Of a stretch of DNA of 32,000 bases, positions 2,982 through 28,935 are shown piece after piece (the first letter of the stretch is position 1; every line of letters starts with the position of its first letter). The notes below the pieces were generated by a model that was not told where the DNA came from, ran no database searches, and saw only the letters and a program-made list of their open reading frames with translations. The stretch is from Horticoccus luteus (lineage in GTDB: Bacteria; Verrucomicrobiota; Verrucomicrobiia; Opitutales; Opitutaceae), in contig NZ_CP080507.1 in assembly GCF_019464535.1 (NCBI RefSeq), forward strand, positions 120,001 through 152,000, in the 5' to 3' direction. A program made the translations under genes and the position numbers.

Positions 2982-2992
2982 GGGAAAGGATT

Positions 2993-3030
2993 AACCACGA
3001 AACACACGGAAGACACGAAAGGGAAAAGCG
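2993..3030 (-). promoter_or_regulatory. Phased triple TTCGTG-type direct-repeat motif, copy A
   Basis: The minus strand reads ccgcttttccctTTCGTGtctTCCGTGtgtTTCGTGgtt. Hexamers (as CACGAA/CACGGA on the plus strand) sit at 2996-3001, 3005-3010 and 3014-3019, with 9-bp phasing. The motif ends 14 nt upstream of the ATG at 2981. A related copy lies at 8269-8306. Confidence 0.4.
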
Positions 3031-3123
3031 GCCGAGGGAAACGAAGTGGTGGGGGCCGGCGAATCACGCGGAGAGACGCGAAGGCCGGAGCGCTGGGGGC
3101 AGTGAAGCCGGCGCGGGCTGGCT

Positions 3124-3858
3124 TCAGGCGAGCTGGCGGGAGAGGCGGCCTTTGTAGGTCTGGCCGAGGGCGCGGTTGTGTTCGATCGCGCCGGGGAGGT
3201 TTTGACTGCGAAGGAGCGGGAGCGGATGGCCGTGGGTTTTGAGCCAGTCGATGGTGGCGAGCATGAGCCAGTTGAGGACGGAGGCGCCGATGAAGGTCGA
3301 CGTGGGGCCGGCCATGACGCCTTCGCCCGTATCGACGATCGCATCACCGGGCACGCCGCCGTTGTCGAGGGTGTAGTCGGCGACCTCGAAGAGGCGTTGG
3401 CCACCCGGGTGTTGGGAGGGCGTGATCTCGGACATGGCGCGGCAGGTGAGCGCGACGACGGTGAGGCCTTTTTTCTTGGCGTAGAGGGCGACGTCGATGG
3501 GAGAGGTGTTTTTGCCGGAGTTGGAGATGACGAGGACGATTTCGCCGGGGAGGAGTTGATATTGGCGGTCGTAGCGTTCGATGAGTTTGGTGCCGTAGCC
3601 GGGCAGGTTTTCGATGAAGCCGCCGGTGGGATCGATGATGCCGGTGACGCAGACGAGTCCGCCGGCGCGGCCGATGATTTCGCGGGAGATGAGTTCGCTG
3701 TGACCGGAGCCGAAAGTGTGGATGACGCCGCCGCGGGCGATGGATGCGCCGAGGAGGGGCGCGAGCGCGGTGAGCGTGGGGGCGTTGGCGGACCAGGCGC
3801 GGGCGAGCAGGTCGTTGGCGCGGGAGAAATAGGCGTCGGAGAGAGGAGAGAGCGTCAT
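3124..3858 (-). CDS. SIS (sugar isomerase) domain protein, UPF0309-like
   Basis: 244 aa with an ATG start. GGVIHTFGSGHSELISREIIGRAGGL and VISNSGKNTSPIDVA match the SIS phosphosugar-binding fold. Confidence 0.8.
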   Translation of the reverse strand: MTLSPLSDAYFSRANDLLARAWSANAPTLTALAPLLGASIARGGVIHTFGSGHSELISREIIGRAGGLVCVTGIIDPTGGFIENLPGYGTKLIERYDRQYQLLPGEIVLVISNSGKNTSPIDVALYAKKKGLTVVALTCRAMSEITPSQHPGGQRLFEVADYTLDNGGVPGDAIVDTGEGVMAGPTSTFIGASVLNWLMLATIDWLKTHGHPLPLLRSQNLPGAIEHNRALGQTYKGRLSRQLA

Positions 3859-3976
3859 GGGAAATGGGAGGGTCGGGAAGCGGGGAGCCGGGGGCGCACT
3901 TTTGTCCGGGCGGGGCGCGAGACGAGATTCTTTTTCCTCGGCAGAGGTGCGGGCGGCTGCCAGAACGGCGGCTCTT

Positions 3977-5962
3977 ATGCGCCCCCTCGTATCGTCCGGC
4001 TGGTTGTTGGCTGCGTTGTTAATTTCGCCGGTGCTTGCGAGCGCGGCGAATCAGCCGGCGCCGCCGGCGTTGGTGCCGATCGAGGATTTTGCGCAGACAC
4101 CGATCGTGTCAGGCATGCGGATGTCGCCGGACGGCAAGGCGGTGGCCTACACGGCCTCGGCGGACCAAAAAACGGCGATCGTGATCAAGGACCTGGACAC
4201 GGGCAAAGTGTCGGGCGTGGACGATGGGTGGGCGCCGACGTGGGTGAATGACGGGCGGATCGCATTTGGGGGAAATGGCTTCGCGGCGATCGATCGCGAT
4301 GGGTCAAACTACAAGGGGCTCGCGGGACGGGCGCGGCAAATGGAGACGCATCAGGTCGATGGCTTGCTCGTAGCGCCGTCTCCGATCTTCAGCGAGTTCA
4401 CGACGAAGGCGAACAAGGATGACGTGCTGCTGCTGCAGTATGATTATCCGAACTGGCGGGGGCGTTACTCGATTATATTATCTTTTCCGCATGTGCTGCG
4501 AATGGACACGCGGTCCGGCGGTTTCATGCGCATGGTGGAAAATCCAGGGGATGTCATGGGCTGGGGTTTGGACGCGAGCGGCGTCGTGCGCGTGGGCGTG
4601 GAATACAATAAAGGTCTCTACCGGGTGCTGTATCGCGATGACGCGAAGCAGGGCTGGCGGGTCTTGAAAGGGCTGGACTGGGAGCGGCGCGGGACCTCGG
4701 TGCGGGGGATGAGCGCGGACGGCAAGCAGCTCTATCTCGGCCGGATTTCAGACAACGGAAAGTGGGCGCTGTATACTTACGATATCGCCGATGAAAAGAT
4801 GGGCGAGATGCTGCTCGGTCACGCGAAGTATGATATCGGCTCGTTCGACGGTGATGGCTCGGAGTTGATGCTCGCCCGCCAGACGCGGGAGCTCCTCGGG
4901 GTGCGTTACGTGGCGGAGATTCCGAAGACGCAATGGTTCGACCAGCAAATGGCGTCGATCCAAGCGGCGCTGGACAAGAGCCTGCCGGAGCGCATCAACA
5001 CGATCACCGACATGGATGTGGCGCGGCAGAGGTTTTTGGTGAACTCCTCTTCGGCGCGCGATCCGGGCACCTATTACGTTTTCGATCTTGGGAAGCAGCA
5101 ACTGACTCCGGTGATGGCGACGATGCCGTGGATCAAGCCGGACCAGATGGCGGAGATGATCCCGATCACCTACAAGTCGCGCGATGGGCTGCCGATCCAC
5201 GGTTTTCTTACGCTGCCGGCCGGGCGGGGCACCAAGAAGCTGCCCTTGGTGGTGATGCCGCACGGCGGCCCGTTTGTGCGGGAGACTTATCGCTTCAATC
5301 CCGACGTGCAGTTCCTGGCGAATCGGGGCTACGCGGTGCTGCAGATGAATTTTCGTGGTTCGCCGGGCTTCGGGCAGGCGTTTCTCGACGCGGGAAAGCA
5401 TCAAGTGGGCACGGGGATGATCGACGACATCACCGATGGTGCGAAGTGGGCGATCGCCAAGGGGATCGCGGATCCCGATCGCGTGGCAATCATGGGCTGG
5501 AGTTACGGCGGCTACGCGGCGCTGATGGGCGTCATTCGGGAACCGAAATTATTCCGGTGCGCGATCGACCTCGCGGGCGTGACGGATTGGAAGGCGATCT
5601 TGAAATACGACAACGAAGTGAGTCCGAACTCCCTGCCGTATACGCGTGATTACATTGGGGATTTTCAGAAGGACGCGGCGGCGCTCGACGACATTTCGCC
5701 GGTCTATCACGCGGACGCGATTCAGGTGCCGCTCCTGCTGGTTTACAGTAAGTCGGACGATACGGTGCACTACGACCAGGCGACGGCGATCACCAAGGCG
5801 TTGGACAAGGCGGGCAAGCCCTACGAGTTCATGGCGAAGTTCAACGAAGGGCATGGTTTCTACGAGAAGAAGCACCGCGTAGCGCTTTATCAGACGATCG
5901 AGGCGTTTCTCGCGAAGAACATGGGTCCGGCGGCGGCGGGTGCCGCGACGGGCGCGAACTGA
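3977..5962 (+). CDS. Secreted S9 family serine peptidase (prolyl oligopeptidase / dipeptidyl aminopeptidase-like)
   Basis: The track ORF starts at 3857. I prefer the ATG at 3977, which gives a signal peptide MRPLVSSGWLLAALLISPVLASA. Catalytic triad context: GWSYGG (Ser), SKSDDTV (Asp), NEGHGF (His). N-terminal propeller-like region. Confidence 0.9.
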   Translation: MRPLVSSGWLLAALLISPVLASAANQPAPPALVPIEDFAQTPIVSGMRMSPDGKAVAYTASADQKTAIVIKDLDTGKVSGVDDGWAPTWVNDGRIAFGGNGFAAIDRDGSNYKGLAGRARQMETHQVDGLLVAPSPIFSEFTTKANKDDVLLLQYDYPNWRGRYSIILSFPHVLRMDTRSGGFMRMVENPGDVMGWGLDASGVVRVGVEYNKGLYRVLYRDDAKQGWRVLKGLDWERRGTSVRGMSADGKQLYLGRISDNGKWALYTYDIADEKMGEMLLGHAKYDIGSFDGDGSELMLARQTRELLGVRYVAEIPKTQWFDQQMASIQAALDKSLPERINTITDMDVARQRFLVNSSSARDPGTYYVFDLGKQQLTPVMATMPWIKPDQMAEMIPITYKSRDGLPIHGFLTLPAGRGTKKLPLVVMPHGGPFVRETYRFNPDVQFLANRGYAVLQMNFRGSPGFGQAFLDAGKHQVGTGMIDDITDGAKWAIAKGIADPDRVAIMGWSYGGYAALMGVIREPKLFRCAIDLAGVTDWKAILKYDNEVSPNSLPYTRDYIGDFQKDAAALDDISPVYHADAIQVPLLLVYSKSDDTVHYDQATAITKALDKAGKPYEFMAKFNEGHGFYEKKHRVALYQTIEAFLAKNMGPAAAGAATGAN

Positions 5963-21524: not shown

Positions 21525-21724
21525 GGGGATTGGGCGGCGGCGGGAGAAAGGAGTGAAGGAGCGAAGAGGAGAAGGAGGAGCGGGCGCGGGGCAGGGCGGC
21601 GGAGTGTGGGGCGTTTCGGCGGAGCGGGACTAGCTGAAAGACGTGAAAGTTTGCGCGCGATTTTTGTGGTGCAGCGTTGCGTTGCGAGAAACGGCGGCGG
21701 ATGACTCGCCGGAATTTTGCGCGC

Positions 21725-24085
21725 ATGAAACTCACCCCCATCAATTCGGCGGAAGCGATCCTTGAGGCGTTCTATGACGAACAGCTCAGCGGCTGGATGG
21801 AGCACTGGACGTGCGAGGGAGCGGCGGAAGGCCTCGCGCGAAAACAAGGGTGGGCGATGGCGGCGTACGAGTGGGCGCGCACGCCGGCGGACGAAAGCGT
21901 GGCGGCGATGCGGGCGGCGCGAACCTTCACGCCGCCGGTGCCGGCGGAGGATTACGACACGTTGATTTTCTCGATCGTGGCGCCGCCGGGATCGCGGGTG
22001 ACGTTGCGCGTGGGCACGGAGCGGGGCGAGCGGAGCAGCACGAGCACGCCGTTCGCGCACTTGAAACGCGAGTTGGGCGTGGCGCTTGAGGGCGCGCGGG
22101 AAGTGCGCGCGTTGAGCGTGGAAATTTTTGGCGATGCGGTGCGGGCGCCGGGGCCGGTGAGCGGTTGGTTCAACTGGATCGGCTTGCAGGAGCAGCGGCA
22201 GCTCGCGCGGCATTTGCGGCAGTTCGAGCGCTTCGATGCGCGGTGGGAGGACTATCTGAAGCCGGAGAGCTACGAACCGACGTTCGAGCCGGTTTACGGA
22301 CTGCATTTGACGGGAGCGGAACTGGCCGCGGCGCGCGGGCGGCTGGCGGCGGGCGGCGGGCGCGAGCGGTCGCCGCTGGAGGAGCTGGCGGTGGACGCGG
22401 CGCGCACGCCGCCGGAGCGGATGATGTCGGGCTTCGTGAATTTCTGGAACGACACGCGGTTCACGCGGGAGCGGGATTACGGGAAGCATTTGCTGACGCA
22501 TGGCGCGAATGCGGCGCAGGCGGCGGTGTTGTTTCGCGACCAGGCGCTGGGCCGGCTGGCGGCGCGCTATGCGATGGCGATGGCGCACAGCGAACGCTGG
22601 GACAGTGCGTTCGTGTGCTGGATGACGGGGAGCCTCTGGGAGCACCGGGCGTTTGTGCCGAGCCTGGTGATGTATGAGTGCGCGTTGATCCTGGATTTGT
22701 GCGGGGAGTGGTTCACCGACTATGGCCGCGATTTGATTTTGCGGCGGCTGGCGGAGGAAGGGCACGGGACGAACAACTACAACACGTGGTGGTGGGAGTA
22801 TTTGTTTTGGTGCAACCAGGCGGCGTGGTTCATGCCGGGGCGGATGTATGCGTATCTCGTGCTCGAGCGCACGATGCCGGCGCGGTGGACGCCGTATCCG
22901 CGGCCGGCGGAATCGCGCGTGGCGCCTTACACGGAGCTGGCGCTGGCGGATTTGATGGAGAATCTGCGGCGCGTGCTGCTGCCGGACGGCGGTTACACGG
23001 AAGGGCCGATGTATTTCACGTGGACGGCGCGGCAGGCGTTCATCTCGCTGTATTACTACGCCCGGGCGCGGGGGAAGGAGGTGCGCTCGCTGGTGCCGCC
23101 GGCGATGCTCGCGACGGCGCGCATGGCGGAGGTGCTGGTGTCGACCGACGATGCGGCGCAGATGATCATGATCTGCGATGCGCAATACCTGAATCAGGAG
23201 TCGCTCGCGGCGCTGGCGTGGTTGATGCCGGACTCGCACTGGGTGACGATTTTCCGAAAGTCGCTCGCGCACACGGGCGGGCAGCCGTTGACGTTGTTGA
23301 CGGCGAATTTGCTGGCGGAGATTCCGGCGGCGGGGCCGGCGTGGCGCGCGTGCGTGGAGATGAGGGACATCGGGCAGATGGCGTCGCACCGGCGGCTGGG
23401 CGGCGAATGGGTGAAATTGTTTTTGATGGGCAACCAGGCGGGGGCGTCGCACACGCACGAAGACAAGGGGAGCTTCGTGCTGGAGTTTGCGGGCGACAGC
23501 TTCGCGCTGGATTTCGGGATGTGCGATTACAGCAATCCGCTCGGCGATCTGATGAAGCATGCGCAGCGGCACAACATGCTTGTGCCGGTGGCGCCGGGCA
23601 TGCGGCCGCGGCCGGCGAATCCGATCCTGGCGGACATCACGCCGACGGGCAGCGGCGACGAGCGGGCGTTGCATGCGCGCATGGAACTGGCGGCGGGCTG
23701 GGAAGGGTGGTTCACGCGCTGGCAGCGCGCGTGGGATGCGGAGACGCCGGCGGAGTTGACGATCACGGATGAGTGGGAACTCGCGCAGGGGGAGGGCGTG
23801 GCGTTTCACTGGACGACGCCGCTGCCAATCGCGTTGAGCGACGACGGCCGCAGCGCGACGATCGAAGGCCGGCGCGGCCGCGCGCGGTTGACGTGGAGCG
23901 ATGAGGCGACGGCGGTGGTGGAGCAATTGCCGCTGGAAGAACCGAGGTGGAAGGACGTGATGCGGCAGCGGAAGGAGATGGCGCTCGTCGTGCGGCCGTT
24001 GCCGGCGACGCAGCCGCGCCTCACGCTCACGCAGCGCGGGCGGCGCGGTCGGCTGGTGGTGAATGTGAGGTTGGAAGTGAAGTGA
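21725..24085 (+). CDS. Heparinase II/III-like protein (polysaccharide-lyase-like), no signal peptide
   Basis: I prefer the ATG at 21725 (MKLTPINSAEAIL); the track start is 21677. The C-terminal GASHTHEDKGSFVLEFAGDSFALDFG matches the Hepar_II_III His-x-His-x-Asp motif. The central region looks like an alpha/alpha toroid (WWWEYLFWCNQAAW). Confidence 0.7.
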   Translation: MKLTPINSAEAILEAFYDEQLSGWMEHWTCEGAAEGLARKQGWAMAAYEWARTPADESVAAMRAARTFTPPVPAEDYDTLIFSIVAPPGSRVTLRVGTERGERSSTSTPFAHLKRELGVALEGAREVRALSVEIFGDAVRAPGPVSGWFNWIGLQEQRQLARHLRQFERFDARWEDYLKPESYEPTFEPVYGLHLTGAELAAARGRLAAGGGRERSPLEELAVDAARTPPERMMSGFVNFWNDTRFTRERDYGKHLLTHGANAAQAAVLFRDQALGRLAARYAMAMAHSERWDSAFVCWMTGSLWEHRAFVPSLVMYECALILDLCGEWFTDYGRDLILRRLAEEGHGTNNYNTWWWEYLFWCNQAAWFMPGRMYAYLVLERTMPARWTPYPRPAESRVAPYTELALADLMENLRRVLLPDGGYTEGPMYFTWTARQAFISLYYYARARGKEVRSLVPPAMLATARMAEVLVSTDDAAQMIMICDAQYLNQESLAALAWLMPDSHWVTIFRKSLAHTGGQPLTLLTANLLAEIPAAGPAWRACVEMRDIGQMASHRRLGGEWVKLFLMGNQAGASHTHEDKGSFVLEFAGDSFALDFGMCDYSNPLGDLMKHAQRHNMLVPVAPGMRPRPANPILADITPTGSGDERALHARMELAAGWEGWFTRWQRAWDAETPAELTITDEWELAQGEGVAFHWTTPLPIALSDDGRSATIEGRRGRARLTWSDEATAVVEQLPLEEPRWKDVMRQRKEMALVVRPLPATQPRLTLTQRGRRGRLVVNVRLEVK

Positions 24086-24184
24086 CGCGCCGCAATGAAA
24101 CGCCGGCGGATGAATCCGAGCGTTGGAAAAATCGATTGGACAGGCGCGGTGGCGTTTGCTGACGTGCCCGTCCACCGCAGCCAC

Positions 24185-24259
24185 ATGAACCAGCGCGCCA
24201 TCATCATCGCCGCGATTATTATTCGCCCTCACTCAGGGCGGAGGCGCATGGCTGTATAA
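24185..24259 (+). CDS. Ile-rich leader peptide (24 aa) of a putative ilvA attenuator
   Basis: ATG AAC CAG CGC GCC ATC ATC ATC GCC GCG ATT ATT ATT CGC CCT CAC TCA GGG CGG AGG CGC ATG GCT GTA TAA = MNQRAIIIAAIIIRPHSGRRRMAV. In-frame upstream ATGs at 24095 and 24110 could extend it. Below the 60-aa cutoff of the ORF track. Confidence 0.55.
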   Translation: MNQRAIIIAAIIIRPHSGRRRMAV

Positions 24260-24300
24260 GTTTACCGACAACAACCATTCACTTTCGAAAGCCCTGAGCG
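24224..24300 (+). promoter_or_regulatory. Attenuator alternative helices (1:2 hairpin and 2:3 antiterminator)
   Basis: CGCCCT (24224-24229) pairs with AGGGCG (24235-24240). CTCAGGGC (24232-24239) can instead pair with GCCCTGAG (24291-24298), which is the 5' arm of the terminator. Confidence 0.55.
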
Positions 24301-24326
24301 ATTCCCGCTCAGGGCTTTTTGTTTTT
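24288..24326 (+). terminator. Rho-independent terminator ending 2 nt before the threonine dehydratase ATG
   Basis: aaaGCCCTGAGCG-attcc-CGCTCAGGGCtttttgttttt. Perfect 10-bp GC-rich stem (24291-24300 / 24306-24315), flanking A/U pairs, and an 11-nt T-rich tail. Confidence 0.8.
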
Positions 24327-24328
24327 CC

Positions 24329-25363
24329 ATGAAGACAACCAGCCACTCCTCCTTCTCTCTCGCTGACGTCGTCGCCGCGCGGCGGCGCATCGCGGGAGGG
24401 CTGCGACTCACGCCGTGCGCCTTGGCGCCGGCCTTTGCGCGGGAGCTGGGGATTTCGATCTGGTTGAAGCGGGAAGATCTGCAGCGGACGGGCTCGTTCA
24501 AGGAGCGCGGGGCGCGGCACGCGTTGTGGTGTTTAACGGAAGCGGAGAAGGCGCGCGGGGTGGTGGCGGCTTCGGCGGGCAATCACGCGCTGGGGCTCGC
24601 GTTTCACGGGCAGCAGCTCGGCGTGCGCGTGACGGTGGTGATGCCGGCGGGGGCGTCGGCGGTGAAGGTGACGCGTTGCCGGCAACTGGGCGCGGACGTC
24701 GTGTTGCACGGAGCGAACTTCGATGCGGCGCAAACGCACGCGGTGGCGCGGGCGGCGGCGGGCGGCGCGGTGCTCGTGCCGCCGTTCGACGACGAGCGGG
24801 TGATCGCGGGGCAAGGGACGCTGGCGCTGGAGATGATGGAGCAGGTGCAGGCGTTTGACACGGTGGTGGTGCCGGTGGGTGGCGGCGGTTTGCTGGCGGG
24901 CGTGGCGACGGCGATCAAGGCGTTGCGGCCGGACGTGAAGGTGGTGGCGGTCGAGCCGGAGCGAGCGGCGGGATTCAGCGCGGCGTGGCGGGCGGGAGCG
25001 CCGGTGCGGATCGCGACGGCGCCGACGCTGGCCGACGGGCTGGCGGTGGCGCGCGTGGGCGAAGTGGCGTTTGCGGTGGCGCGGTCGCGCGTGGACGACG
25101 TCGTGACGGTGAGCGAGCAGGAGTTGGCCAACGCGATCGGCTGGCTGGCGCGAAGCGCGGGCGTCGTGGCGGAAGGCGCGGGGGCGGCGGCGCTGGCGGC
25201 GGTGATGGCGGGAAAAGTGCGGACGCGCGTAGTGATCGTGCCGGTGACGGGCCGCAACGTGGATCCCAGGGCGCATGCGCGCGCGGTGGCGGCAGGCGGC
25301 GCGTGCGAAGGGATCGCGGCGGCGAATCAGGCGCGGGCCACGAGGAGGCTGATGATTTCGTAG
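24329..25363 (+). CDS. ilvA: Threonine ammonia-lyase (threonine dehydratase), short form without a C-terminal regulatory domain
   Basis: 344 aa. PLP-lysine motif TGSFKERGA, SAGNHA, glycine loop PVGGGGLLAG. The length leaves no room for ACT-like regulatory domains. The ilvA assignment is supported by the Ile leader upstream. Confidence 0.8.
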   Translation: MKTTSHSSFSLADVVAARRRIAGGLRLTPCALAPAFARELGISIWLKREDLQRTGSFKERGARHALWCLTEAEKARGVVAASAGNHALGLAFHGQQLGVRVTVVMPAGASAVKVTRCRQLGADVVLHGANFDAAQTHAVARAAAGGAVLVPPFDDERVIAGQGTLALEMMEQVQAFDTVVVPVGGGGLLAGVATAIKALRPDVKVVAVEPERAAGFSAAWRAGAPVRIATAPTLADGLAVARVGEVAFAVARSRVDDVVTVSEQELANAIGWLARSAGVVAEGAGAAALAAVMAGKVRTRVVIVPVTGRNVDPRAHARAVAAGGACEGIAAANQARATRRLMIS

Positions 25364-28300
25364 GGCGCGAAAGGCAGGTGGTTCGCGCGCAGGGCGGCGC
25401 GCGTCAGCGGGCGGTCGAGAAGATCGACTTTGCGTGCGGTCCAGCCGTCGGCGAGTTGCAATCGCGCGGTGCCGCGCTGGCCGCCCACTTCATGAAGGCG
25501 GAGGATCCAGCGATCGCGGTCGATCGGCCGTGCCCAACACGGGATGAGCGTGTCGCCGCCGTCGAGGCCATGGAACGCACTCGTGTGGGGCGCGCCCGTG
25601 TAGCGCACGGGCGGCGTGAACAGCGTGTCGGCGAGCGCGGCGGGTTGCTCGGCGCGGGGCGCGGCGGCGCGATAGGCGCCGAGCGCGAGTTCGATGACGT
25701 GACGCCCCTGATCGGTGAAGCGCGAGGCTGGTTGCGGGAGGCGGCTGAGGTGAGCTTGATACGCTTTCGCGTGATCCTCGTAGCCGACGTGAAGAGGGCT
25801 GCGCACGAGGGAAACGCCGAGATTGCCGTCGCGGCAGTTCACGCCGTATTTCGCTTCGGTGACGACGAAGAGACCTTCGGTTTCGGCATCGGCAAACACC
25901 GCGGCCCAACGGCTCATCGGCGTTTCCCACATGGCTTCGGCCTGCGGATGCGTCAAAAGTTGCGGACGGAGAATGCTGCCCATCGGGCCGCCGCAGCGCA
26001 TTTCGCGCGCGGCGTAGCGGGTGGGGAGGTGCCAGCGAAGCATCGTGTCCTCCTCGTGCCAATCGAGGTCGATCGTGAGGCGGAGGACGCTGGCGGCGGG
26101 TTCAAGCCAGTAGCGGAGCGCGATGGTGCTGGCGCGGCCGAGGCGGCGGCGGACGACGAGGGCGTCGCCGTCGAGCTCGAGCGTGGCGGGGGTGCGCACG
26201 GGTTGGCCGAGCGAGAACGAATGGCGATCGATGTCCCACGGGCCGAAGTTGGCGGGCTGTTCTGGATACAGGACGAGTTCGGCGGGGGCGGAGAAATCGA
26301 CGGCGCGGCCATCGATGGTCAACGCAGCGAGGCGGCCGCTGCGGTCGAGGCGCGCGGTGACGCGGCCGTTGGTGAGCGAGCGGCCGGAGGCGGCGACCGG
26401 TGGCGCGGCGATCGCAGCGGCGTCGGCGAGACGGACGCCGGCGAGGGGCGGCAGGGGCACCACGCGACCGTCGAGGACGCAGGTGCGCGCGAGCGGGAGC
26501 GGGTTGAACACGCAGGCGGCGGACGCCGCGGCGGAGGAAGGTTTGCGGGACGGCGGCGGGGCGAGCGAGGCGACGGCGGCGGCGGATTGTTGCGCGGTGA
26601 GGTGGGCGAGTTCGGGGAGGCCTTCGGCGTAAACCTCCGGAATGCCGCTGCCGGGAATGAAGTCGTGGAACTGCGCGAACACCATGCGTTGCCACGCGTG
26701 ATCGAGGGCGGCATCCGGCGCGTGGTGGGTGACGACGAGAGCGGCTTCGCGCGTTTGGAGGGCGCGTTCGAGCGCGCGGAAGGCGGACTTCACGGGGCTC
26801 TGCGTCGTGTAGGTGCCGCGGTGATATTCGAGGTAGATCTCGCCGTCGTGGATCGGAAGGCGCGCGCGGGTGGGAGCGAGGCGGTCGAAGAAGGCTTCGG
26901 GTTGATCCCACTGCAGCGCGGGGAGGCCGCGCAGGGCGTTGAGGCGGCGGGCGCGTTCGCACATGTCGGCGGAAGGGCCGCCGCCGCCGTCGCCCCAGCC
27001 GGTGGGCAGGAGCACCTCGGGATGCAGGTCGCCTTGGTAATTGCCGCGGGTGGCGGCGCGGACCTGCGCGACGGTGACGGCGTTGTTGAACTGCACGCCT
27101 TGGGTGACGTGGCTGAGGACGGCGTGGCCGCCGGGTCCGCGCCAGACAAAGCTGGAGTGCGGGAAGCGGTTGGTGGTGTTCCACGTGGTCTTGGTCGTGA
27201 AAAAATAGTCCACACCGCAGAGGCGCATGAGTTGCGGGAGGCAGGCGGCGAAGCCGAACAGGTCGGGGAGCCAGAGCACGCGGGAGTGCCGGCCGGAGAG
27301 CTGCCGGAAGGCCTCCTGGCCGAGGGTGAACGTGCGCACGAGACCTTCGCCGCAGGGGAGGTTGGAATCGCTTTCGACATACATGCCGCCGGTGGCTTCC
27401 CACTGGCCGGAGTGCAGGCGCTGGCGAACGGCGGCGAGGAGGGCGGGGGCGCGGCGGCCGACGGCCTCGTAACTCATGGGCTGGGAGTAGGCGAAACGGA
27501 ATTCCGGATACTGCGCCATGAGGCGGTTGGCGTTGGCGAAGGTGTGCACGGCCTTGCCCTCGCCGATGTGTTCGGGCCAGAGCCAGACGAGGTCGAGGTG
27601 CGAGTGGCCGGTGAGCGCGGCGGAGGCGAGCGGCGCGGGATCGCGGAGTTCGCGATAAACCCGCGCCAGGCCGCGGCGAAGCGCGGCGACGTCGCCGGAT
27701 TCAAAGGCATCGAGGGCGAGGTCGACGCCGCGCAGCAGGCGGCGATAGAGCGGCGAGACGTCGGCGAGCGGCGCCTGCGCGGTCATGGCGTTGAGGGCGG
27801 GCGCCACGCCGGGATGCTCCTTGGCGCGAAGGTCGAGCATCCATTCGTAGAGGCAGTTGAGATCGTGATACGCACCCCACGCTTCGTCGTGGCGGGTGAG
27901 AAGCTGCGCGCCGCGGAAGAGATTTCCGGCGGGCGTGAGGCCCTGCGCGTCGGGATGCCAGATGGCGGCCTGCACGCAGAGGCACTCGAGCCAGAGCTCG
28001 TGCGCCCCGGAAGGGAGTTCGCAGTGGCGGTGCGCGACGTCGAAACCGAAGTAGGGCAGGCCGTCGACGTAGAGGGTGGCTTCCCCCTGTTCGTCCCAAT
28101 GCAGCCAGCGGGAGGCGGGGCGGGCGTTACGTGGAGCGGCGGGCAGGATGATGCGGCACCAGCGTTGATCGTAGAGGCGGCCCCACGCGGTGCCGGGGCG
28201 GACGGCGCGGCGGGGGAGTTTTTGCGCGGCCGGGAGAGAGAGGGGGCGCGGATGCGCGGCGGTGGCCTCGACGGAGAGCGGTTGTGGATTGCTCCAGATG

Positions 28301-28374
28301 AGGTCTTGGAGGCGCAAGACGCCGCGTTGGGTGCGGAGCGGGGTGAGGTGAAGAGCCGGGTTGGGGGGCAGCAT
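25327..28374 (-). CDS. Glycoside hydrolase family 38 alpha-mannosidase
   Basis: I prefer the ATG at 28374 (MLPPNPAL); the track uses the TTG at 28437. LTGHSHLDLVWLWP, VLWLPDLFGF and IYLEYHRGTYTTQ are GH38 catalytic-domain motifs. No signal peptide. The 3' end overlaps the ilvA 3' end by 37 nt (convergent). Confidence 0.9.
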   Translation of the reverse strand: MLPPNPALHLTPLRTQRGVLRLQDLIWSNPQPLSVEATAAHPRPLSLPAAQKLPRRAVRPGTAWGRLYDQRWCRIILPAAPRNARPASRWLHWDEQGEATLYVDGLPYFGFDVAHRHCELPSGAHELWLECLCVQAAIWHPDAQGLTPAGNLFRGAQLLTRHDEAWGAYHDLNCLYEWMLDLRAKEHPGVAPALNAMTAQAPLADVSPLYRRLLRGVDLALDAFESGDVAALRRGLARVYRELRDPAPLASAALTGHSHLDLVWLWPEHIGEGKAVHTFANANRLMAQYPEFRFAYSQPMSYEAVGRRAPALLAAVRQRLHSGQWEATGGMYVESDSNLPCGEGLVRTFTLGQEAFRQLSGRHSRVLWLPDLFGFAACLPQLMRLCGVDYFFTTKTTWNTTNRFPHSSFVWRGPGGHAVLSHVTQGVQFNNAVTVAQVRAATRGNYQGDLHPEVLLPTGWGDGGGGPSADMCERARRLNALRGLPALQWDQPEAFFDRLAPTRARLPIHDGEIYLEYHRGTYTTQSPVKSAFRALERALQTREAALVVTHHAPDAALDHAWQRMVFAQFHDFIPGSGIPEVYAEGLPELAHLTAQQSAAAVASLAPPPSRKPSSAAASAACVFNPLPLARTCVLDGRVVPLPPLAGVRLADAAAIAAPPVAASGRSLTNGRVTARLDRSGRLAALTIDGRAVDFSAPAELVLYPEQPANFGPWDIDRHSFSLGQPVRTPATLELDGDALVVRRRLGRASTIALRYWLEPAASVLRLTIDLDWHEEDTMLRWHLPTRYAAREMRCGGPMGSILRPQLLTHPQAEAMWETPMSRWAAVFADAETEGLFVVTEAKYGVNCRDGNLGVSLVRSPLHVGYEDHAKAYQAHLSRLPQPASRFTDQGRHVIELALGAYRAAAPRAEQPAALADTLFTPPVRYTGAPHTSAFHGLDGGDTLIPCWARPIDRDRWILRLHEVGGQRGTARLQLADGWTARKVDLLDRPLTRAALRANHLPFAPYEIISLLVARA

Positions 28375-28935
28375 CGCGGCGGCACGCTCGCGGGACGAGC
28401 GGTGGGGGGCAAATGTTTCCTGACGTCGGGCGGGCAAGCCCTGATCCCGGCCAGTCGGACGAGGAGAGCGGACGACGAAGTCGCGCCGCCGACTGCGCCG
28501 TCTGCGCCGGCAAAATCGGCGGTGGCGCAGCGGTCCCGTTGGCGGAGAGCACCTCGGTGGCGGTCGCGGACGCTACCGGGTGTTTCGACTCTGAGTCCAT
28601 TTCGGTTACTCGCCGCTGAAGCATGTCGTTGGCCTCGACCCGCCCACTTCCTTCGCCAAGCTCGACGGTTAACAAATGCGAATGTTCAAAATCCACGTCG
28701 GCTCGACCGCTTGGGGGCTGCGCTTTCCCCGCGACCGAGCGGCTCTTATCTTGGCCGACTGGGATGCAGTTGGGCGTCGACAGAACACTTTCTGCCCAGA
28801 GCGGATGATGCGCCGTTGGTGGTTCGACGGCCAATAAGGGACGCCCTCGCAGTCGTGTCTTCCAACGATAACCTTCCGCTCTCGCTTGCCGGTCATCCTG
28901 ATGACGAAAGGCCCGTCCAACACCGCGTCTTAGGG

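Follow-up and report, generated by a model that had tools for sequence, protein, structure and literature searches.

The stretch analysed here, hereafter the window, comprises 32,000 nt of the Horticoccus luteus genome (contig NZ_CP080507.1, positions 120,001 to 152,000). An ilvA-like gene for a threonine/serine dehydratase of 344 aa lies on its + strand at 24329-25363. Directly in front of this gene are a short open reading frame (ORF) rich in isoleucine (Ile) codons, a segment with alternative RNA pairings and a hairpin followed by a U-tract. A first-pass annotation, made from the letters alone, had read the arrangement by the attenuation logic of the trp and ilv operons. This reading was supported by the comparative data given below, with refinements. 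The unit is probably, at roughly 85%, a classical ribosome-mediated leader-peptide transcription attenuator that couples ilvA to charged tRNA-Ile.

The leader ORF (MNQRAIIIAAIIIRPHSGRRRMAV*) extends on the + strand over 24185-24259, with its ATG at 24185 and a TAA at 24257-24259, and has 24 codons plus the stop. The regulatory codons (24200-24223, + strand) comprise ATC x3 at 24200-24208, Ala-Ala (GCC GCG) and ATT x3 at 24215-24223. The ORF and its six Ile codons in nine positions were thus found exactly where they had been placed. The codon background was taken from 15 window genes, picked by their pattern of GC content at third codon positions. Ile accounted for 3.8% of the codons in these genes, giving a probability of 2.4e-7 for six or more Ile in nine codons. 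A six-frame scan of the 32 kb showed no second site with at least five Ile in nine codons, so the density is unique in the window. ATT made up 14% of the Ile codons in the same 15 genes, which confirms the earlier impression, gained by eye, that it is the rarer one.

Relatives were obtained from a genome-collection scan, which gave at least four close ones (L001-L004), and from a contig look-up of homologous proteins, which added more (L161-L182). All 16 distinct Opitutaceae ilvA loci with DNA carried the leader-switch-terminator unit directly upstream of ilvA, at 62-73% protein identity. The unit was composed of an Ile-rich ORF, an invariant TCAGGGCGG, a pyrimidine-rich spacer and GCCCTGAGC-loop-GCTCAGGGC followed by a T-run. 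The alignment of ilvA upstream regions that had been proposed as a check turned out in favor of the attenuator, since the Ile run and the alternative helices were kept and compensatory changes were seen. The ATG and an in-frame stop were retained in 16 of the 16 loci. The leader ORF was 75, 78 or 81 nt long and of no other length (25-27 codons), with insertions and deletions in multiples of three. The relatives shared the consensus MSLR[AS][IV]II AA [IM]I[IM](I) ... SGRRRV[AT][AV] and held 3-6 leader Ile codons, some Ile being replaced by Val or Met. In the first Ile run, ATC and ATT were exchanged synonymously with the amino acid retained. Across 13 leaders, ATT accounted for 47 of 60 Ile codons (78%) versus 20 of 123 (16%) in the adjacent ilvA genes; the Fisher p value of 3e-16 for this excess is descriptive only, the sequences being related. 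The putative stall sites in the leader are therefore mostly the rare ATT codon.

The codons TCA GGG CGG were invariant across the leaders, third positions included, which is expected for a segment obliged to pair with two alternative partners. From these patterns, constraint appears to act on the codons in the 5′ half of the ORF and on the RNA in its 3′ half. A longer in-frame ORF of 54 aa, starting at ATG 24095 and with a further in-frame ATG at 24110, contains the leader. Both ATGs precede the promoter-like block described below and were not conserved in the relatives, indicating that conservation applies to the 24-codon ORF starting at 24185. That the ORF might encode a hydrophobic toxin or a membrane peptide was considered and rejected, because no more than 9 residues form the hydrophobic stretch and RNA pairing accounts for the conserved C-terminal SGRRR.

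A covariance model (R1) built from 14 sequences was used to search 79 sources (478 kb), consisting of the window and a subset of more distant ilvA loci, mostly from Proteobacteria. Matches were confined to sites upstream of the Opitutaceae ilvA genes. The held-out loci L181 and L182 were matched at E = 8e-36 and E = 2e-36, respectively. When 180 loci were scanned for a short Ile-rich ORF with a terminator, one other comparable case was found before ilvA, in a metagenome-assembled genome (MAG) of Lutibacter. A scan of metagenome contigs with the IlvA protein gave 36-52% identity among the matches listed, with no close relatives among them.

The predicted intrinsic terminator (3:4; 24287-24326, + strand) has a 14-bp stem (24287-24319) with the loop ATTCC and a U-tract of T5GT5 (24316-24326). 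Its folding energy was -23.8 or -25.1 kcal/mol depending on the exact segment (z = -6.5). Only the dinucleotide CC separates the U-tract from the ilvA ATG at 24329, in agreement with the earlier statement that the terminator ends 2 nt before the start codon. Among 30 terminator-like matches in the 32-kb window it was by far the strongest, and the others occurred at about the chance rate (~21 expected). Over 14 loci, 97% of the cells of the terminator stem were paired; in L178, the base of the stem had changed from G-C to A-U in a compensatory manner. A canonical 11-nt U-tract followed the hairpin in all loci.

Because a heparinase II/III-like gene (21677-24085) lies upstream on the same strand, the hairpin and U-tract might be no more than its terminator, with the small ORF being accidental. 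No other terminator-like site was present between 24085 and 24287, and the hairpin may also block read-through from the heparinase-like gene. In the relatives, however, the leader and terminator follow entirely different upstream genes, and where they stand next to divergent asparaginase genes there is nothing upstream to terminate. The position of the terminator was constant relative to ilvA and the leader ORF. The varied, often divergent upstream genes thus exclude a case that the first-pass annotation had itself named as fatal to its proposal, and from the compared loci a role solely as heparinase terminator appears largely refuted and extremely improbable.

Two further structures were predicted in the leader region. 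The minimum free energy (MFE) fold of 24185-24331 was at -51.5 kcal/mol, with z = -5.3 relative to 200 dinucleotide-shuffled sequences, and contained the 1:2 hairpin together with the terminator. The fold check of the leader region that had been suggested at the outset returned mutually exclusive structures in a region of significant stability. The anti-antiterminator (1:2; 24191-24254, + strand; MFE -25.4 kcal/mol, z = -1.6) has an upper hairpin of 24222-24229 with 24235-24242 and a lower stem of 24191-24199 with 24243-24254. The 1:2 hairpin first described was therefore present, lengthened to 8 bp in the MFE fold. The 5′ strand of the anti-antiterminator is exactly where the Ile codons fall.

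Segment 2, CACTCAGGGC (24230-24239), was identical at 9 of 10 positions to CGCTCAGGGC (24306-24315) in the 3′ arm of the terminator, as had been noticed before. The predicted antiterminator (2:3; + strand, 24232-24298) pairs 24232-24255 with 24272-24298 in three helices. The outer helix joins 24232-24239 to 24291-24298. The middle helix (24240-24244 with 24282-24286) is CGG:CCG in most relatives, across a GG/AA mismatch. In the inner helix, ATGG (24248-24251) pairs with CCAT (24275-24278). The antiterminator had initially been given as the 8-bp CTCAGGGC:GCCCTGAG pairing; that pairing exists, although it is not the whole of the structure, which is the three-part hairpin. Its apical loop contains the leader stop codon. 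The antiterminator had an energy of -24.1 kcal/mol (z = -3.7), and none of 200 shuffles was as stable. It shares the 5′ arm of the terminator, so that the two predicted folds are mutually exclusive.

The three mutually exclusive folds of the window were close in energy (-25.4, -24.1 and -23.8/-25.1 kcal/mol), and all three were predicted in every aligned locus (n = 14). The equivalent in-ORF hairpin folded in every relative at -24 to -33 kcal/mol. The 1:2 hairpin occurred in two versions, CGCCCY/AGGGCG in the window type and GATTC/GAATC plus GCCGCC/GGCGGC in the type B relatives. Covariation for the anti-antiterminator, counted as one common structure, gave no signal; this is attributed to the two hairpin versions and to a (GGC)n repeat that allows several registers.

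To represent the ribosome in constrained folding, -15 to +12 nt around the first nucleotide of the aminoacyl (A) site were masked in 14 sequences. With the ribosome on the Ile codons, the full three-part antiterminator was the best fold of the transcript lacking segment 4, which bears out the earlier proposal that a stalled ribosome favors the 2:3 pairing. With the stop codon in the A site, the mask covered ~24242-24269, the middle and inner antiterminator helices were lost, and just a long-range pairing of 7-8 bp around the ribosome was left. A ribosome at the stop codon had been expected to cover segment 2. This did not hold for 24232-24239 and did hold for the extended segment 2, with the same effect. 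In the full transcript, the terminator was the best fold in every masked state. The modelled geometry is that of leader-peptide attenuators, in which segment 2 becomes available during a stall, and a ribosome that has arrived at the stop codon prevents the antiterminator.

With these sequence elements, their conservation and the predicted exclusive folds observed, we infer leader translation, stalling, termination and dependence on Ile in the following way. Transcription would start at the unit's own promoter, ~25-45 nt upstream of 24185, and a ribosome would start on the 24-codon leader. When Ile-tRNA is plentiful, the ribosome would reach the stop at 24257 and occupy ~24242-24269, where the middle and inner antiterminator helices have their 5′ strand. 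In its wake, the 1:2 hairpin (24222-24229 with 24235-24242) would re-form. Segment 3 (24287-24299), being free, would pair with segment 4 (24306-24319), and RNA polymerase would stop in the U-tract at 24316-24326. When Ile-tRNA is scarce, the ribosome would stall on the Ile codons at 24200-24223 and thereby hold the anti-antiterminator by its 5′ strand. This would leave segment 2 (24232-24255) available for pairing with 24272-24298, no terminator would form, and polymerase would enter ilvA.

Compensatory changes in the antiterminator were counted on a structural alignment (A2) that was hand-anchored and padded with N. A plain MAFFT alignment (A1) was set aside, as it misaligned the variable spacer and left the inner antiterminator helix uncountable. 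On A2, 83.7% of the antiterminator cells paired over 14 loci versus 30-41% with slid partners. Pair 73:102 was A-U in 7 loci and G-C in 7, with 0 mismatches. Pair 70:105 was G-C in 11 loci and A-U in the window; of the other two loci, one had G-U and one had no pair. The changes linked a coding 5′ strand to a non-coding spacer, as GTGA:TCAC, GTGG:CCAC and ATGG:CCAT, and were non-synonymous in the peptide (VT, VA and MA).

Several observations weigh against an attenuator or temper the support for it. As A2 was fitted to the fold, its counts lean toward the fold. The 7/7 split at pair 73:102 may stem from just one or two events, and in a shuffle control 62 of 500 shuffles had at least as many pairs changed on both sides as were observed. 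The covariation is thus modest, because the element is highly conserved. The 1:2 hairpin alone was not significantly more stable than its shuffles (z = -1.6). For the window and several relatives, the truncated RNA, when free, already had the antiterminator as its MFE fold; default termination would therefore have to depend on the ribosome and on co-transcriptional order and kinetics, as in the classical models. Some relatives (L178 and L182) have only 3 leader Ile codons. An SD-like (Shine-Dalgarno-like) motif was absent upstream of the leader ORF in 12 of 13 loci, and the way in which such an ORF would be translated counts on the same side. Finally, among the actinobacterial attenuator candidates, the similar-looking Streptomyces coelicolor ilvB leader was not attenuator-like, as codon substitution had no effect (PMC1262725). 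This result calls for caution in treating a computational attenuator as proven.

The same S. coelicolor result would fit an RNA switch set by a ligand or a protein, that is, a riboswitch or a protein-binding leader of the kind proposed for the actinobacterial LEU element, with the ORF incidental. Much of the conservation is indeed at the RNA level, with TCAGGGCGG invariant down to third codon positions, and the ORF has no preceding SD. Such a switch, however, would leave unexplained the in-frame start and stop in every locus, the length steps of three only, the synonymous variation of Ile codons and the enrichment of rare ATT. The positions of the Ile codons coincide exactly with the 5′ strand of the anti-antiterminator, and the antiterminator loop holds the stop codon. 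The RNA has no multi-helix junction or conserved unpaired pocket typical of ligand-binding RNAs, and it matched no Rfam family. We therefore regard a ligand- or protein-set switch as unlikely and prefer ribosome-mediated attenuation.

Control could also be mainly translational, with the switch gating ribosome access to ilvA or with leader translation feeding re-initiation. The ilvA ATG follows the terminator hairpin at a distance of 10 nt, and the antiterminator form leaves segment 4 and the U-tract before the ATG single-stranded. The gap between the T-tract and the ATG was 0-7 nt in 8 loci and ~17-30 nt in 6, and an SD-like motif before ilvA was absent in 13 of 13 loci. The view that the terminator takes the place of a conventional leader or ribosome-binding site (RBS) for ilvA thus applies to the 8 loci with a short gap and not to the other 6. 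Likewise, the description of the genome as SD-less held at the leader and ilvA starts, the sites checked, and its genome-wide scope was dropped. Leader ORFs near structural genes have been proposed to promote re-initiation at a spacing of 10-16 nt (PMC4833913), whereas the leader stop lies 69 nt upstream of the ilvA ATG. The 11-nt U-tract kept in every locus is a signature of intrinsic termination, and the ATG lying ~17-30 nt past it in 6 loci also argues against a primarily translational switch, which we consider very unlikely. Translational control could act as an added layer on transcription attenuation, not as its replacement.

The regulated gene encodes a protein with the PALP domain only (Pfam PF00291), 100% identical to a Horticoccus luteus threonine/serine dehydratase (Opitutaceae, Verrucomicrobiota). 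The gene had been called a threonine dehydratase. Its best NCBIfam matches were indeed models of threonine ammonia-lyase, with the alignment covering model positions 5-320 of 408; all of them stayed below the curated cut-off, because the C-terminal ACT-like regulatory domain is missing. The catalytic domain fits biosynthetic IlvA (TIGR01124, TIGR01127 and PRK09224 types), and the one or two C-terminal ACT-like regulatory domains (PF00585) of these types were not found in the protein. More than 120 homologues with 62-73% identity were all PALP-only, nearly all of them 327-353 aa long. A biosynthetic role of the ACT-less IlvA is suggested by the Ile leader. As the enzyme lacks the allosteric Ile-binding domain, the attenuator probably provides the main Ile feedback on it.

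Downstream, a GH38 alpha-mannosidase gene (25327-28437, - strand) converges on ilvA with a 37-nt overlap of the 3′ ends (25327-25363), indicating that ilvA is monocistronic. There is no terminator between the ilvA stop (25363) and the end of the convergent gene (25327).

A promoter-like element was located at 24137-24164 on the + strand, consisting of TGGACA (24137-24142) followed by TTTGCT (24155-24160) or CTGACG (24159-24164). In 13 of 14 loci, the block [CT][TC]GGACA / CTCGACA (TCGACA/TGGACA) was the sole conserved one within the 80 nt that precede the leader ATG. A T-rich TTYNNT that does not resemble TATAAT came 16-17 nt after the block in most loci; the spacing in the window is ambiguous. 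The two elements lie 25-50 nt upstream of the leader ATG on one count and 11-24 nt on another, which suggests that the unit has its own, putative promoter and a very short 5′ untranslated region (UTR). The block with TTYNNT may be an Opitutaceae promoter type. Matches to the sigma-70 consensus promoter numbered 2 in the 32-kb window, with ~2.4 expected.

Leader-peptide attenuation of ilv genes is established in enterobacteria. The ilvGMEDA operon of Escherichia coli and Salmonella, which includes ilvA, is preceded by ilvL, a leader-peptide attenuator with 1:2, 2:3 and 3:4 hairpins and an intrinsic terminator, and E. coli ilvBN is also leader-attenuated. The Opitutaceae unit resembles ilvGMEDA in its short leader peptide, alternative hairpins, intrinsic terminator and the presence of ilvA among the targets. 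In contrast, ilvL is multivalent (Ile, Leu and Val codons) and precedes an operon of five genes, in which IlvA carries allosteric domains. The Opitutaceae leader is dominated by Ile, with Val and Met appearing just as neighbor substitutions; it precedes a single ACT-less ilvA, belongs to another phylum and has no SD. There was no similarity to ilvGMEDA in sequence or to an Rfam model. The unit shares with the E. coli trp, his, thr, leu and phe leaders a run of regulatory codons, a stop-codon ribosome that would block the antiterminator and a stall that would free segment 2, and differs from them in amino acid, regulated gene and lineage. Over 23900-24500, the Rfam leader families Thr_leader, Leu_leader, His_leader, Trp_leader and Phe_leader gave no match even at E <= 10, and no family of Rfam 15 reached its gathering score in the whole window.

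Also comparable are the Corynebacterium ilvBNC leader with the ilvB-II motif, and the ilvB-OMG motifs, which were reinterpreted as upstream ORFs (uORFs); these are rich in codons for branched-chain amino acids (BCAA), and ilv uORF attenuation was concluded to be widespread (PMC10272879). The same paper cites a report whose title states that a leader peptide is formed without a ribosome-binding site. Like our unit, ilvB-II and ilvB-OMG combine a BCAA-codon uORF with a terminator and an antiterminator in high-GC bacteria. They differ in controlling ilvB (acetohydroxyacid synthase) operons, in being enriched in several BCAAs and Thr, and in occurring in other phyla. None of the elements in that study was reported before ilvA or in Opitutaceae. 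In Listeria monocytogenes, Rli60 is a validated attenuator, in which mutation of the leader ATG or RBS gave a super-attenuator phenotype (PMC5864092), and the attenuator peptide of the Staphylococcus aureus ilv-leu operon was also validated experimentally (PMC5794164). These are likewise ribosome-mediated attenuators of BCAA biosynthesis genes. Unlike the Opitutaceae unit, they belong to Firmicutes, precede a whole ilv-leu operon, encode BCAA- or Leu-rich peptides with an RBS and act together with CodY. In the literature consulted, no attenuator was described in Verrucomicrobia or Opitutaceae and no dedicated ilvA leader, though broad comparative surveys might list similar elements. The attenuator proposed here is a further case of established leader-peptide attenuation; its occurrence in Opitutaceae and the dedicated ilvA leader are the features with no match in the literature consulted.

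The Lutibacter MAG (L038, Bacteroidota) carried two tandem Ile-rich leaders within 280-560, MRNLAICPSIIIENVIITSYKGRL (280-354) and MKLYTNIIIISIIIRFSG (429-485), each followed by a hairpin and a T-run. The genes downstream were ilvB (725-2419), ilvN (2436-2960) and ilvA (2992-4236), the last with its regulatory domain kept. The second peptide, MKLYTNIIIISIIIRFSG, resembles the ...IIIAAIIIRPFSG... motif of the Opitutaceae leaders, and R1 gave a weak full-length match (E = 0.0035). All Rfam matches in this locus were below threshold, Thr_leader reaching 27.6 bits versus a threshold of 55. Unlike the Opitutaceae unit, the Lutibacter locus is AT-rich, has two leaders in tandem and precedes an operon rather than a single ilvA. 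The likeness of the peptides may reflect either homology or convergence.

A more far-reaching scenario can be drawn from these observations. The Opitutaceae would have lost the allosteric domain of IlvA and moved feedback wholly to an Ile-only attenuator. The leader, with its very short 5′ UTR, and ilvA would both be translated without an SD, the U-tract would be the landing site of the ilvA ribosome, and one switch would gate transcription and translation. The ...IIIxxIIIR(P)FSG leader common with Lutibacter would mark an old attenuator lineage of the Planctomycetes-Verrucomicrobia-Chlamydiae and Fibrobacteres-Chlorobi-Bacteroidetes (PVC-FCB) groups. We regard this scenario, taken as a whole, as doubtful.

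The attenuator itself, as preferred here, would extend classical attenuation, which needs tight coupling of transcription and translation, to the Verrucomicrobiota, where RNA-based regulation and translation initiation are, to our knowledge, almost unstudied. It would offer a natural setting in which to study how leader ORFs without an SD reach a translation speed that allows coupling with RNA polymerase, and an example of feedback retained after loss of an allosteric domain. An Ile-codon leader would also mark the "threonine/serine dehydratase" without a regulatory domain as the isoleucine-pathway enzyme of the Opitutaceae. At ~140 nt, the element is compact, highly conserved and easily modelled, and hence suited to Rfam and to annotation.

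Several starts of ilvA in the database gene calls seem misplaced. In L180 (L180:3001), the database start lies inside the T-run of the terminator, and the next fitting ATG is ~25 nt downstream. Miscalled ends are also possible in two unusually long homologues, P0095 (380 aa) and P0063 (415 aa), whose called starts are downstream of the T-run. Judged from the window, genes in this genome seem rarely to end in a canonical hairpin/U-tract terminator.

The genes flanking the unit varied among the loci and the upstream gene was often divergent. A divergent L-asparaginase gene, which does not hold this place in the window, was the immediate upstream neighbor in L161, L166, L169, L176 and L182 and lay ~2.4 kb upstream in L174. 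The divergent asparaginase and leader-ilvA may be a conserved pair tying Asn/Asp supply to the Thr-to-Ile branch.

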